Source: an uncultured Nitrososphaerota archaeon (GTDB lineage: Archaea > Thermoproteota > Nitrososphaeria > Nitrososphaerales > Nitrosopumilaceae). Taken from it: 64,000 bases of DNA. Below are positions 15,001 through 18,000 of the stretch, in pieces. The stretch covers positions 256,001 through 320,000 of the forward strand of contig CAWGPD010000004.1 of assembly GCA_963824385.1 (NCBI GenBank), read 5' to 3'. Made by a program: the position numbers. Positions within the stretch are counted from its first letter, which is position 1, and the number at the start of each line of letters is the position of its first letter.

Positions 15001-18000
15001 ACACAAGATGTGTTACATAAAATATTTTTGTGTCGTACATCCACCTACAAAAACAAGTTACAAGAGTGTAACAGATGGTCATCGATGTAATTAATTGACA
15101 ATCATTTTACAAGATCATGATCAAAAATTTAATTTTGCAAAAAAAATTGTGCATATATTACTCATCATTTAGTGTAATTTTCTTAAGCGTCACCATAGAA
15201 AAACTAGTAAATTCAACAAATTAGCAATGGCAAAACGATCAACAAGAGCTGTTAAAAGAAGATCTGCTCCAAAGAAAAGATCTGCACCAAAGCGATCCGC
15301 TCCAAAGAGAAGATCAGCTCCAAAGCGTAGTGCTCCAAAGAGAAGATCAGCTCCAAAGCGATCCGCTCCAAAGAGAAGATCAGCTGCAAGAAAACCAGCT
15401 GCACGAAAAGCTAAGAGAACAGCTTCAAGAAGAAGAAGATAAAATTTTAAACGGATTATCGTCTCATAGTAGGCGATAATCTGTAATATTTTAGCTAAAC
15501 ATTTGACCTGGCGGAGATGTGGGCGACTTGCCTTTGACTGCATCAGGTTCTACGAAAAATTTTCTTTCATTAGGAATCAAAGACAGCTTAAGCGATGCAT
15601 TTACTGCATAATGGGGCGTGCCATCAGGATTCTTATAATTTAGTGCAATTCCCACCCTGTCAAGATCAACTTTTACTTTAACTATTGTGCCATCTTCAAG
15701 CTTGAAAGTGACATGTTCATCTCCCACTCGCGTATGTTCCAACATTTTGAATTCTATCTTGTCTTTTGTGCTCATACCAATTGGAACCAGCCTGAGTTAT
15801 TTGAAGTAAACGCAATAGAACACGAGCGATAAAATAAAGTCTAATTTTTAAAATATATGAAAACTTTATGATACATATAATCAATCACAAGTAAATTCTA
15901 AAACATGCCAATAGAAAAAGATGTTAGACTATATCGACGATCTGTGGATTCTTTATGACATTACAATTACAAAGAAAATTACCTGTGAGATATTTTACAT
16001 TTACATCTTGAACTTGATGACGTAGAAAATATTTGATGCCATAATTGAAATTACATCCATTGTAGACGAAATAAAAAATCTAAAACTGAATCAGTAAAGG
16101 AAGCTCATCAGTTTTATTTGCTGTTCAGTTGTGAGCACATTTTTGGAAGTTAACACTTCAAGCAATTGCGTTATCAATGCACGCTCTTGTTCTGAGAATC
16201 CAGTTGGACCCTTGTCACCTGGTGGACCTGGTGGACCTCTTGGACCTTGTTCTCCAGGAACACCCTGTTGTCCTTGTGGGCCTTGCTGACCTTTATCACC
16301 CAGTGGACCGGTAGCACCAGTCAATCCCTTGTCACCTTGAGGACCTTGTACGCCTTGCGGACCCTTGTCTCCAGATAGTCCTTGAGGACCTAGTGGACCA
16401 GCTGGACCTGGAACTCCTTGAATTCCCGGAGGACCCTTATCACCAGGTACGCCTTGCGGACCAGTAGTACCCTTTTCACCTTGAGGACCTTGAATTCCCT
16501 GAGGGCCGGGTGGACCTTGTGGACCTGGAGTACCTCGCGGACCTTGATCACCACTTGGTCCAGGTAGTCCCCTTGGACCTTTGTCTCCTTGAGGACCTGG
16601 AATTCCAGTAAGACCTTTTTCTCCAGCAGGACCTTGAGGACCTTGGGGACCTTTCTCACCTGGTGGACCTTGAGGACCTGTTAATCCCTTTTCACCCTGT
16701 GGACCTTGTGGTCCTGGCAGTCCCTTGTCTCCAATTATTCCAAGCGGACCTTTTTCTCCTTGAGGACCAAGAGGTCCAATAATTCCTTTATCACCAGGTG
16801 GACCAGGAGGACCAGTTGGTCCCTTTTCACCAAGTGGGCCAAGTTCTCCGGTTAATCCTTTATCGCCCTTGTCACCCTTGTCACCCTTGTCACCTTTTTC
16901 CCCTTTTTCTCCTTCATCACCTCGAGGACCTTTATCTCCTTGAGGACCTTTATCGCCAGTAATTCCTTTATCTCCAATTGGTCCCTTGTCGCCCCTATCG
17001 CCCTTGTCTCCTTGTGTACCTTGTGGGCCTTTTTCTCCTTGCGGACCTGGAGGACCAAGTGGACCTTTATCGCCAGTAATTCCTTTATCTCCCATCGGTC
17101 CCTTGTCTCCTCTATCACCCTTGTCACCTGGTGGACCTGGTGGACCTTTGTCTCCCTTGTCACCTGGGGGACCTGGTGGACCTTTGTCTCCTTGTACTCC
17201 CATAGGTCCAGGAGGACCAGATACCCCGGGTTGTCCCATTGGCCCTGGTTGTCCCATTGGCCCTGGAGGACCTGTGGGTCCTGATGGACCTCTTGACCCA
17301 CGGTCGGCGGAATACTGTTCTGTTACAGTTTTTGAAGTTCGAGTCTCTGGTTCTGATTTTGTATAACGAGTTACAATATCTGATTCAGGCTGCGAGGCAG
17401 TATGTCCCAAACCAGTTCTTGGAACATTAATTTGAAAACTAGTATGAATGGAAGAGAATTGATCAATTACAACAATCCAAACAGTTCCTCTTTGAAATAT
17501 AGAATCAGGCAAAGGATTTTTTGTAGAACCAAGAGTTTGTGAGAATCGCTTGTCTCTTACTCTAAGATGAAAATTGTCCTTCCATAGCGAATGAAATCTT
17601 TTTTGTTTAATTTCGTCTGATGATGGCGGACTATCACAAATTGCAATCTGTACTTCAAATACACCAGATGATAGAGCAAAGGGCGATTCGCCAGATATCT
17701 CAATTGTGTTATCTTTAGATGACATATTCTACGTGTAATTCCTAAGTATTTTTGTATTTTCAATATGATATAAAGCCCATTTGTGAATTTTTAGATACTG
17801 AGAAATCGGTTTTCTACCTGCCTAACAGGCTGTTTTCAAACTAATGTATTTATCTACGATAAACCCATATTTTCATGACCATGAGGAAATTATTTGGAGA
17901 TAAAAAGGAAGAATCCAGTACAGAGATAAGGAAAGTAGGGTCAGAATTAACCAAAGAGTCAGACGATTCAAAACTAACAGACGCCAATTATTCTAGAAAC

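Follow-up and report, generated by a model that had tools for sequence, protein, structure and literature searches.

The window analysed here, a stretch of 64,000 nucleotides from an uncultured archaeon of the family Nitrosopumilaceae, contains a gene for a collagen-like protein that is a core gene of this family and is nearly always present in one copy. The protein is composed of an N-terminal head, predicted to be an Ig-like beta-sandwich, a rod of 123 unbroken Gly-X-Y triplets, and a short C-terminal tail, predicted to act as a trimerisation domain. That three chains form a three-stranded collagen rod is a prediction well supported by modelling, and there is, in our estimation, an even chance that this family-specific trimer is an intracellular connector of fixed length, located in the cytoplasm or on the inner side of the membrane.

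Gene Structure and Domain Architecture

The gene occupies positions 16091-17725 of the minus strand (544 codons and the stop codon at 16091-16093). The ORF list and a regular-expression scan agree with an earlier note on this DNA, which described a protein of 544 aa with an N-terminal part of 142 aa and 123 uninterrupted Gly-X-Y triplets; the latter form the collagen-like domain (residues 143-511; 16193-17299, minus strand) and end with the triplet GFS. When GFS is counted as a triplet, the segment that follows the repeat, given in the note as a C-terminal helix of 35 residues, is present but comes to 33 aa. The Collagen assignment made there was reproduced: PF01391 is the sole Pfam family matched by the protein (204.8 bits, gathering score 27.2; E 1.1e-61), and all eight above-threshold Collagen matches in its own genome fall in the single frame of 16091-17725. 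Single copy status holds for the three-part architecture, but not for collagen generally, as unrelated genes with collagen Pfam matches occur in some genomes of the family. The 117-nt repeat reported earlier was also found by TRF, at 16944-17185 (minus strand; 2.1 copies, 85% match), and represents a tandem duplication of 13 triplets within the collagen-like domain. The G+C content is raised, as had been noted, with 0.486 for the gene versus 0.368 for the window and 0.50-0.56 across the repeat (300-nt windows).

The X position of the triplets is occupied mostly by Pro (54), Asp (28), and Glu (11), and the Y position by Lys (33), Gln (27), and Pro (23). The Gly-X-Y domain contains 21% Pro and 22% charged residues with a net charge of zero, and includes eight KG[DE] and three RG[DE] motifs, i.e., 11 K/R-G-D/E charge pairs, as well as ten QGP triplets. 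In imino acids and charge pairs it has the composition that stabilises a triple helix free of hydroxyproline (Hyp), and no prolyl-hydroxylase-type gene (PF13640) was found in the genome, which is 86% complete. A bulk survey of archaeal collagen-like domains reports an excess of the triplets KGD and KGE, joined in archaea by QGP (PMC11923368, available part).

Residues 1-105 (17411-17725, minus strand) are predicted by AlphaFold2 (27 sequences) to fold into a seven-strand Ig-like beta-sandwich, with block-mean pLDDT of 93-98 for residues 11-100; this head has 15 invariant columns. The best fold matches (VIA-align) were generic, unrelated Ig/FnIII sandwiches with Z of 6.8-5.0, which suggests a likeness at the general fold level rather than family membership, and a Foldseek search of PDB and BFVD with the head model returned nothing at E <=0.001. 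The head is followed by a linker rich in Pro, Glu, Lys, Ser, and Thr (residues 106-142; 17300-17410, minus strand), which is probably disordered (pLDDT <50 for residues 108-134), varies in length, and cannot be aligned between genera.

Expression and Cellular Location

A promoter-like A/T motif, GAAAATACAAAAATAC, is located at 17746-17761 (minus strand), 21-36 nt upstream of the ATG. In the form AAAT[AGC][CT][AC][AGT]A[AT]ATA[CG], the motif was found in 22 of 23 upstream regions of orthologues, 45-57 nt from the conserved G..PF codons and with its end 15-22 nt ahead of the start codon. It is probably a TATA/BRE element, and the mRNA would be leaderless or carry a very short leader. Since the motif is directly upstream of the start, there is no room for a missed N-terminal exon.

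Transcript data for the window itself come from one RNA run, which contained 12% of the sampled words and yielded a single metatranscriptome contig of 304 nt, identical to 16285-16588 and too little to establish transcription, transcript ends or strand. In Candidatus Nitrosotenuis chungbukensis MY2, the orthologue VMY2_013330 has a baseMean of 16,793, versus 106-2,903 in its four neighbouring genes, and is given as highly transcribed and as detected in the proteome (PMC13037477, Dataset S6, as far as available).

The earlier claim that the N-terminus carries neither signal peptide nor membrane helix stands: no window of 19 residues in the protein has a mean Kyte-Doolittle hydropathy above 1.2. 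The same is true of the family, as no signal peptide, membrane helix, LPXTG motif or other anchor was detected in any of 49 complete orthologues, the highest 19-mer hydropathy among them being 1.54. In 46 orthologues, the number of N-glycosylation sequons is low, with a median of 0 and a maximum of 2; as only about 0.7 would be expected from composition, this depletion is too weak to be of use and was set aside.

The lack of export and anchoring signals, the promoter motif close upstream of the start codon, and relatives of the head in evidently cytoplasmic contexts together point to an intracellular protein. These relatives are P0042, where the head is followed by TPR, DUF4011, SF1 helicase, and REase, and P0030, where a TM helix with RKTKKEK after it precedes the head, both being metagenomic proteins of uncertain origin and the topology of P0030 coming from the positive-inside rule only. 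Alternatively, the same trimeric rod could be exported by an unrecognised route to serve as a surface fibre, adhesin or envelope stabiliser that projects from the S-layer or lies under it, a reading which we consider quite possible, though on balance not probable. To our knowledge, every prokaryotic collagen-like protein of known location is found on the surface of a cell, spore or virion, the characterised bacterial ones (Scl1/2, Lcl, BclA, Bucl) included. An Ig-like sandwich and a Pro/Thr/Ser-rich linker are features typical of proteins on the surface, and this protein has a predicted Ig-like head and a linker rich in Pro, Ser, Thr, and Lys. The NCBIfam profiles closest to it describe such adhesins, but it scores far under their cut-offs (208.7 against 325, 187.1 against 500, and 178.7 against 400 bits). 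The MY2 orthologue is discussed as a cell-surface 'LPXTG-anchored collagen-like adhesin' in the available passages of PMC13037477 (2026), the sole paper found to discuss an orthologue, which propose S-layer interaction and envelope stabilisation and place it among induced surface genes. However, the accompanying table gives it 0 TM helices and no signal peptide, in agreement with the 49 orthologues, and despite this grouping the gene does not respond to osmolarity (log2FC -0.03, adjusted P 0.79; PMC13037477, available part). The label 'LPXTG-anchored adhesin' is a mislabel. Together with the promoter motif, which leaves no space for a missed exon, and the contexts of P0042 and P0030, these observations lead us to prefer the intracellular connector.

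Length and Conservation of the Rod

Each of the 49 complete orthologues has its 72-185 triplets (median 104) in one continuous run, which makes about 5,300 triplets overall. The number of triplets is characteristic of a clade: in one subclade of genus g1, 10 of 10 species have 123 or 124, and in g6, six of six species have 102 or 103. The ranges observed are 84-87 in g15 and g24, 99-124 in g1, and 155-185 in g22, g18, and g2. Given the collagen rise of 0.286 nm per residue, the 369 residues of the window protein correspond to a rod length of about 105 nm, much as the 100 nm proposed before, and those of its relatives to 62-159 nm.

The rod is better conserved than the head (median identity 0.89 versus 0.82) and has 24 invariant non-Gly columns when 14 orthologues, which represent 12 genera, are aligned with MAFFT. 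Eight of these columns, and four more conserved at 85% or above, fall in its best-conserved patch (residues 356-380; 16586-16660, minus strand), which begins with G[DE] and ends with [IV]P-GPQ and is a candidate docking or self-association site.

A further-reaching reading, which we regard as unlikely, is that the rod is a cytoskeletal or spacing element with its length under selection, extending from a partner in the membrane or envelope to one in the cell centre, and thereby helping to set the cell width or to organise the interior. Nitrosopumilaceae are slender rods about 0.2 um wide, and 105 nm is near the cell radius; cultured members of the other ammonia-oxidiser families are coccoid. 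If true, this would be the first case, in any cell, of a cytoskeletal or ruler element built from collagen, and it would account for the failure to find the gene in the other families of ammonia oxidisers searched.

C-Terminal Tail and Predicted Trimer

The most conserved segment of the protein consists of the tail (residues 512-544; 16094-16192, minus strand) and the adjoining near-invariant Pro-rich triplets (residues 494-503; 16217-16246, minus strand), in line with the C-terminal conservation noticed earlier. The tail has a mean column identity of 68% and nine invariant columns; in alignment A2 (26 sequences), G16, P17, P18, and G19 are invariant and P20 and P21 are conserved at >=90%. Neither tail nor head matched any Pfam family, and PDB sequence searches with the tail and with the head profile gave no matches. 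A profile of the tail found one match in each of five family genomes tried as a positive control and nothing in five sister-family genomes that carry collagen genes.

The 33 residues after the repeat are read as two short helices in a hydrophobic interchain interface. When the last 10 triplets and the tail were modelled in three copies, the predicted trimer scored 0.69, while the best of three controls scored 0.12, which gives in silico support to trimerisation through the tail as suggested before. The mark of 0.69 is reached by 20 of 30 solved one-chain pairs and by one of 23 solved single chains, a calibration made on two copies, though three were folded here, and the model's memory of solved collagen peptides may partly contribute to the score. 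The runs agreed in at least 97% of contacts, with a partner pLDDT of at least 84. Confident interchain contacts are predicted at L36, L40, L41, L44, L58, and L62 of the 63-residue construct, and the Gly-X-Y part shows staggered contacts (e.g., residue 16 of chain 1 with residue 18 of chain 3), with residues 494-503 among those making them confidently. These residues probably serve as the nucleation site of the triple helix.

That the Gly-X-Y run adopts no collagen helix in vivo, being instead a disordered charged spacer or a phase-separating low-complexity region, would accord with the missing hydroxyproline machinery (the PF13640 search of the 86% complete genome) and with the repeat-driven variation between 72 and 185 triplets. 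Such a spacer would, however, have no need of the Gly period kept unbroken in 49 of 49 orthologues; 21% Pro, the 11 charge pairs, the invariant X and Y residues at specific positions, the conserved GPPGPPG beside the trimerising tail, and the confident staggered three-chain model also argue against it, and we find it highly improbable.

As a trimeric connector, the protein would be a structural component specific to Nitrosopumilaceae and abundantly expressed. Identical chains would join in threes through their two-helix tails, and residues 494-503 would nucleate a Hyp-free triple helix that probably zips towards the N-terminus and would draw its stability from a Pro content of some 21% and from Lys-Gly-Asp/Glu ion pairs. 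The resulting rod would have a small helical knob at one end and, at the other, three Ig-like heads on flexible linkers of about 20-60 residues (37 here). The heads, the knob, and patches of the rod, such as residues 356-380, could then bind the partners that the rod connects. The roles put forward in the earlier note, as strut, ruler or envelope tether, are likewise proposals; a single triple helix that is 100 nm long is semi-flexible and would serve poorly as a strut under compression.

Distribution and Inheritance

The N-terminal domain was found in 176 of 201 Nitrosopumilaceae genomes, including 135 of the 143 high-quality ones, and in all 27 genera, nearly always with one match each; the near-universal presence claimed before is thus extended to a larger set. 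A profile of this domain matched 182 of 191 family genomes and none of 109 genomes from 14 other families of the class, and, across the phylum, 60 of 61 family genomes versus 0 of 339 others. The nine negative family genomes of the former search are each split into 30-250 contigs, and the profile-negative G200 and G164 still carry collagen matches, that of G200 starting 42 nt from the contig start.

In the gene tree, the sequences cluster by genus, with g1 as a single clade (support 98/99), and the 17 genus labels need 16 changes, which is the minimum. The gene is present in free-living and large-genome members alike, and its surroundings are conserved in the order sir-rhodanese-TPR<>COL-(94 aa)-(basic)-DRG; the TPR gene adjoins the collagen gene in 16 of 20 loci, and the downstream 94-aa gene does so in 11 of 20. 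The family-wide, syntenic and genus-congruent pattern supports the vertical inheritance proposed earlier. Descent from a fibre gene of a virus or mobile element, or acquisition as a transferred 'eukaryote-like' host-interaction protein, is a negligible prospect, since the G+C of 0.49 versus 0.37 in the window follows from Gly and Pro codons and the collagen repeats, common as they are in phage and giant-virus fibres, belong here to a gene with a fixed position among housekeeping genes (16 of 20 loci), a genus-congruent tree, a presence in free-living and large-genome members, and no head relative found in viral contigs or in BFVD at E <0.001.

Because the whole region is highly syntenic, the neighbours give no specific functional link. 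The TPR gene keeps its place beside the collagen gene, but the same holds for every gene of the region, and it was not retained as a specific partner; the TPR part of P0042 shares 23% identity with the neighbouring TPR protein, merely a generic likeness. The 94-aa gene was rejected as an obligate partner: it was not found in any of the five complete family genomes searched and has about 160-fold less transcript in MY2 (PMC13037477, available part). Pfam gave no match for the 94-aa or the 71-aa neighbour.

A profile search of 1.84 billion proteins with the head gave 70 matches, mainly fragments, and a search for longer homologues with the head alone gave eight fragments of 188-280 aa, one of them labelled Ca. 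Nitrosotalea sp. None of 10 full-length orthologues was found by exact look-up in protein collections, which seem to cover full-length versions of the protein poorly, and the protein atlas returned solely the archaeal 'triple helix repeat' cluster to which the protein itself belongs (score 0.93).

The description of this gene as the first conserved collagen of Archaea was too strong in view of the bulk survey (PMC11923368) and the MY2 listing (PMC13037477), both seen in their available parts. The caution that the gene might already appear in supplementary tables was justified by the Nitrosotenuis orthologue in Dataset S6 (PMC13037477, available part). Our literature searches found no paper that describes the family, its three-part architecture or its standing as a core gene, and nothing relevant on Nitrosopumilus cryo-ET filaments or on Nmar and collagen. 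New here are the predicted Ig-like head with its disordered linker, the tail predicted to trimerise, the invariant patches of the rod, the clade-fixed lengths, and the promoter motif.

Biological and Practical Implications

Nitrosopumilaceae are among the most abundant cells of the ocean, and their shape and internal order are little understood. A family-wide, single-copy, highly expressed gene for a probable structural protein is directly testable in them, as the organisms can be cultured and rods of 100 nm would be visible by EM or cryo-ET; the protein is also expected to express in E. coli. To collagen science, the family offers a natural series of uninterrupted Hyp-free predicted triple helices of 72-185 triplets, a predicted trimerisation tag of 33 residues without a detected Pfam or PDB relative, and conserved surface patches on the rod. 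All three could be used as recombinant scaffolds and in tests of folding nucleation and salt-bridge stabilisation. A further outcome is the correction of the annotation 'LPXTG-anchored adhesin', by which one interpretation in the literature has already been guided.

Comparison with Known Collagen-Like Proteins

VMY2_013330 of MY2 is a direct orthologue, with the same N-terminal motifs and, as neighbours, rhodanese, TPR, the 94-aa gene, and a basic repeat protein; it was published under an automatic adhesin label as a surface protein, and the available passages of PMC13037477 do not describe its architecture, family distribution or tail. The automatic annotation of the orthologues derives from the streptococcal proteins Scl1 and Scl2 (NF038330/NF038329), which they resemble in a long, Hyp-free and charged Gly-X-Y domain, predicted in the archaeal protein to be homotrimeric, joined to a non-collagen domain that trimerises or is predicted to, and in a rod presenting a globular domain. 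The profile scores of 208.7 and 178.7 bits, however, cover the Gly-X-Y part only, and none of the 49 orthologues has the signal peptide or the C-terminal LPXTG motif with membrane helix that belong to these proteins. The trimerising V domain of Scl is N-terminal and helical, whereas in the archaeal core gene a 33-aa C-terminal tail is predicted to trimerise and the N-terminal domain is a predicted beta-sandwich. The profile of the Legionella adhesin Lcl (NF046116) is likewise matched below its cut-off (187.1 against 500 bits).

BclA of the Bacillus exosporium and kindred collagen-like proteins of spore appendages have no classical signal peptide and are assembled from the cytoplasm of the producing cell; BclA trimerises through a C-terminal C1q/TNF-like jelly-roll. 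The archaeal protein is similar to them in lacking a classical signal peptide and in that a variable number of triplets would set the filament length, but has 33 residues, read as helical and with no Pfam match, in place of the jelly-roll, and its host does not form spores. The bacterial collagens produced recombinantly (from Solibacter, Rhodopseudomonas, and Methylobacterium, among others) are also uninterrupted Gly-X-Y sequences, which charge pairs and Pro stabilise without Hyp. These, in contrast, are sporadic and species-specific, whereas the protein described here is encoded by a single-copy core gene of a family, has a head and a tail of its own, and possesses a rod with conserved residues at specific positions.

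Gene and protein organization

The open reading frame at 16091..17725 (minus strand; 544 codons in the ORF list) encodes a protein with a single run of 123 Gly-X-Y triplets (residues 143-511, located by a regular expression), preceded by 142 residues and followed by a 33-residue tail. This agrees with the anatomy described in the earlier note, namely an N-terminal part of 142 residues, 123 unbroken triplets and a C-terminal tail; the Pfam Collagen match and the 117-nt tandem repeat (16944-17185), also claimed there, were each reproduced, and the whole protein lacks a hydrophobic stretch. 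Pfam Collagen is the sole family match of the protein (E 1.1e-61), and the genome to which the window belongs (86% complete, in 5 contigs) yields eight over-threshold Collagen matches, every one of them in this frame. The X position of the rod is occupied mostly by Pro (54 times), Asp (28) and Glu (11), and the Y position by Lys (33), Gln (27) and Pro (23); the most frequent triplets are GDK (24), GPQ (18), GPP (14) and GEK (9), and the net charge of the collagen domain is zero. Gly and Pro codons raise the G+C content of the gene to 0.486, compared to 0.368 for the window. A sub-threshold Collagen hit in the same genome is the short Pro-rich stretch following the N-terminal hydrophobic helix of a 404-aa protein (31901-33115, plus strand), the rest of which reads as a putative HtrA-like serine protease.

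Upstream of the ATG, at a distance of 21-36 nt, is the motif GAAAATACAAAAATAC. Of 23 orthologue upstream regions, 22 contain a relaxed form of it, whose distance from the conserved G..PF codons is fixed at 45-57 nt. In archaeal promoters the centre of the TATA box lies some 26-27 nt ahead of the transcription start, and the motif position therefore suggests a leaderless or short-leader mRNA. The motif also pins the N terminus, and the missing signal peptide is therefore no annotation artefact. Transcription of the window's own gene is represented by one 304-nt metatranscriptome contig identical to 16285-16588, too little to count.

Orthologues were taken from 52 loci, three of them (L022, L033, and L037) in genomes flagged unpublished. 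Of the orthologues, three are incomplete: two are cut off at contig ends and the third, in the complete family genome G030 (locus L053, around 4100-4190), is frameshifted within the GPPGPPG codons with the conserved tail intact in another frame; the cause is a sequencing error in a homopolymer or else a lesion of very recent date. The 49 complete orthologues are all built in three parts: the N part has 127-176 residues (for four of them about 7 should be subtracted, since the start was placed 7 codons too far upstream), the Gly-X-Y run is single and uninterrupted with 72-185 triplets (median 104), and the tail has 33-37 residues. None of the 49 contains an LP.TG motif or a 19-residue stretch with hydropathy above 1.54. 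Given the helix rise of 0.286 nm per residue in collagen, these triplet counts would correspond to rods of 62-159 nm, and of 105.5 nm for the window protein. The 185 triplets belong to L049, from a family member with high G+C content and a 3.2-Mb genome (G052); its linker is made up of roughly ten APQPAPPPA repeats, and the 956-codon open frame at this locus results from scarcity of stop codons rather than from a longer protein.

Distribution and inheritance

The claim that the gene occurs once in nearly every genome of the family holds in a larger sample. In a six-frame search, the 142-residue N part matched 176 of 201 family genomes (135 of 143 high-quality ones) and all 27 genera, with one match per genome except in two. 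A head profile built on 27 sequences, none from genomes flagged unpublished (alignment A3), had matches in 182 of 191 family genomes and in none of the 109 from 14 other families in the class; in a phylum-wide sample it detected 60 of 61 family genomes and none of 339 from other families. These counts take in genomes flagged unpublished (G077, G092, G093, G318, and G353), without which they are 173/198 for the six-frame search and 179/188 for the profile. The nine family genomes missed by the profile all have 30-250 contigs, while every family genome listed as a single contig was matched. Two of the nine, G200 and G164, do have collagen matches, that of G200 starting 42 nt from the contig start; the misses therefore look like assembly breaks within the repeat.

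Collagen-Pfam genes as such also occur outside the family, in 11 of 43 genomes of one sister family. A C-tail profile gave no match in five sister-family genomes that have collagen genes and exactly one in each of five family genomes used as a positive control. A few family members possess extra, very long collagen genes away from the core gene, with Pfam matches at G146:C1:1255060-1255236, G250:C1:815858-816025, and G112:C1:140427-140579 in open frames of 2,518, 1,189, and 797 aa, respectively.

A maximum likelihood tree of head plus tail (49 rows) clusters the sequences by genus: those of the window's genus fall into a single clade (support 98/99), and the 17 genus labels need 16 changes, the smallest possible number, versus a mean of 29.4 after shuffling. 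Gene order is conserved as well (sulfite-reductase-like, rhodanese, divergent TPR, collagen, 94-aa gene, basic repeat protein, DRG GTPase); it is identical in Ca. Nitrosotenuis chungbukensis MY2, and of 20 loci from 17 genera, 16 have the TPR gene next to the collagen gene. Both the genus-congruent tree and the neighbourhood are consistent with a gene passed down vertically since the ancestor of the family. A search of viral contigs returned no relative of the head.

The divergent TPR protein (383 aa; 17875-19026, plus strand; TPR at residues ~40-200, C-terminal half unassigned) carries the automatic label 'magnetosome protein MamA' in MY2; the window's copy scores 62.5 bits against a model cut-off of 200. 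Directly downstream of the collagen gene on the same strand, the 94-aa gene (15491-15775, minus strand) matches no known family. In 11 of 20 loci it adjoins the collagen gene, and it was not found in the five complete family genomes searched; in MY2 it begins 1 nt past the collagen stop, its protein was detected in the proteome, and its transcription is ~160-fold below that of the collagen gene. The 71-aa, extremely basic protein (15227-15442, plus strand), with SAPKR(R) repeats (TRF period 33), has no Pfam or NCBIfam match. Its repeats resemble SPKK-type motifs, which bind the DNA minor groove, so it may be a nucleoid protein. Its MY2 orthologue VMY2_013350 (47 aa, AAPKRK repeats, baseMean 2,903) is reduced at low salinity (log2FC -0.74).

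Predicted trimerization and conservation of the rod

The best-conserved part of the protein is the tail with the ten triplets before it (72% mean column identity vs 61% for the head core), and the 10-residue Pro-rich motif just N-terminal of the tail is nearly invariant. Folding three copies of this 63-residue piece gave a score of 0.69, compared to 0.12 for the best of three controls; among proteins of solved structure, 20 of 30 same-chain pairs and 1 of 23 single chains attain that mark. Contacts agreed between runs by at least 97%, with partner pLDDT of at least 84. The Gly-X-Y chains are predicted to contact each other with a stagger of one to two residues, and the tails via conserved hydrophobic residues L36, L40, L41, L44, L58, and L62 (construct numbering). 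For the collagen part, solved collagen peptides may have contributed to this result; for the tail, a PDB sequence search found no solved relative. The trimeric rod proposed earlier, held by the conserved C-terminal helix, is well supported in silico as a predicted structure, and nucleation of the triple helix probably occurs at the C terminus.

Alignment of 14 orthologues from 12 genera (MAFFT) revealed 24 invariant non-Gly rod columns and 27 more conserved at 85% or above, clustered in blocks, one of which spans residues 356-380 (G[DE]...[IV]P-GPQ). The triplet number hardly varies within clades: all ten species of one subclade in the window's genus have 123 or 124, and all six species of another genus have 102 or 103. 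The collagen part is better conserved than the head (median identity 0.89 vs 0.82). Orthologues with 123 and 124 triplets from two other genera align to the window protein with 3 and 6 gap residues at ~60% identity. The rod is more than a featureless spacer: given the clade-fixed triplet numbers and conserved columns, its length and surface both appear to be under selection.

Head domain, location and role

The head was modelled (AlphaFold2, alignment A1) as a seven-strand beta-sandwich with block-mean pLDDT of 93-98 over residues 11-100, while residues 108-134 are disordered in the model. Structural search yielded generic Ig/FnIII-like sandwiches only (top Z 6.8), Foldseek against PDB and BFVD gave nothing at E <=0.001, and the head sequence had no match in Pfam or PDB sequence search. 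A head-domain profile search of 1.84 billion proteins returned 70 hits, mostly fragments. Two metagenomic proteins among them have other architectures: in P0042 (1,767 aa) the head stands at the N terminus and precedes TPR repeats, DUF4011, a superfamily-1 helicase and a restriction-endonuclease-like domain, and in P0030 (982 aa) it lies in the C-terminal part, beyond a predicted membrane helix, which RKTKKEK follows.

These architectures, together with the lack of an export or anchor signal in any orthologue, point to an intracellular connector, to which we give about an even chance; P0042 and P0030 are, however, metagenomic singletons. A surface fibre exported by an unrecognised route is the less probable but still serious alternative. 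To our knowledge, all prokaryotic collagen-like proteins of known location sit on surfaces, and an Ig-like head on a Pro-rich stalk is typical of surface proteins; yet this reading has to dispense with the same export and anchor signals. The small remaining probability is shared by minor alternatives. The hypothetical role of the protein as a strut, ruler or tether gains some support from the clade-fixed lengths and conserved rod patches.

Comparison with known collagen-like proteins

The MY2 orthologue, VMY2_013330, which opens with the same head motifs as the window protein, is listed in PMC13037477 (ISME J 2026) at baseMean 16,793, against 106-2,903 for its four neighbours, and was detected in the proteome; that paper places it among cell-surface genes and suggests an S-layer interaction. 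The NCBIfam scores underlying its adhesin name are far under the cut-offs, and LPXTG is absent. With orthologues already in print, mislabelled, the earlier claim of a first conserved archaeal collagen has to be lowered. The papers searched do not describe how the family is built or distributed, nor its tail or role, although supplementary tables of other papers could hold the gene. It encodes a collagen-like protein of the prokaryotic kind, with no export signal and with a head and tail for which Pfam and PDB gave no relative, and it is a core gene of this archaeal family.

Archaeal collagen-like domains have been surveyed in bulk (PMC11923368), and that survey notes over-representation of KGD/KGE, with QGP in addition in archaea; the window protein contains ten QGP triplets. 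The same paper gives C-to-N zipping as the standard model of collagen folding, which the putative Pro-rich nucleation site beside a C-terminal trimerization domain matches.
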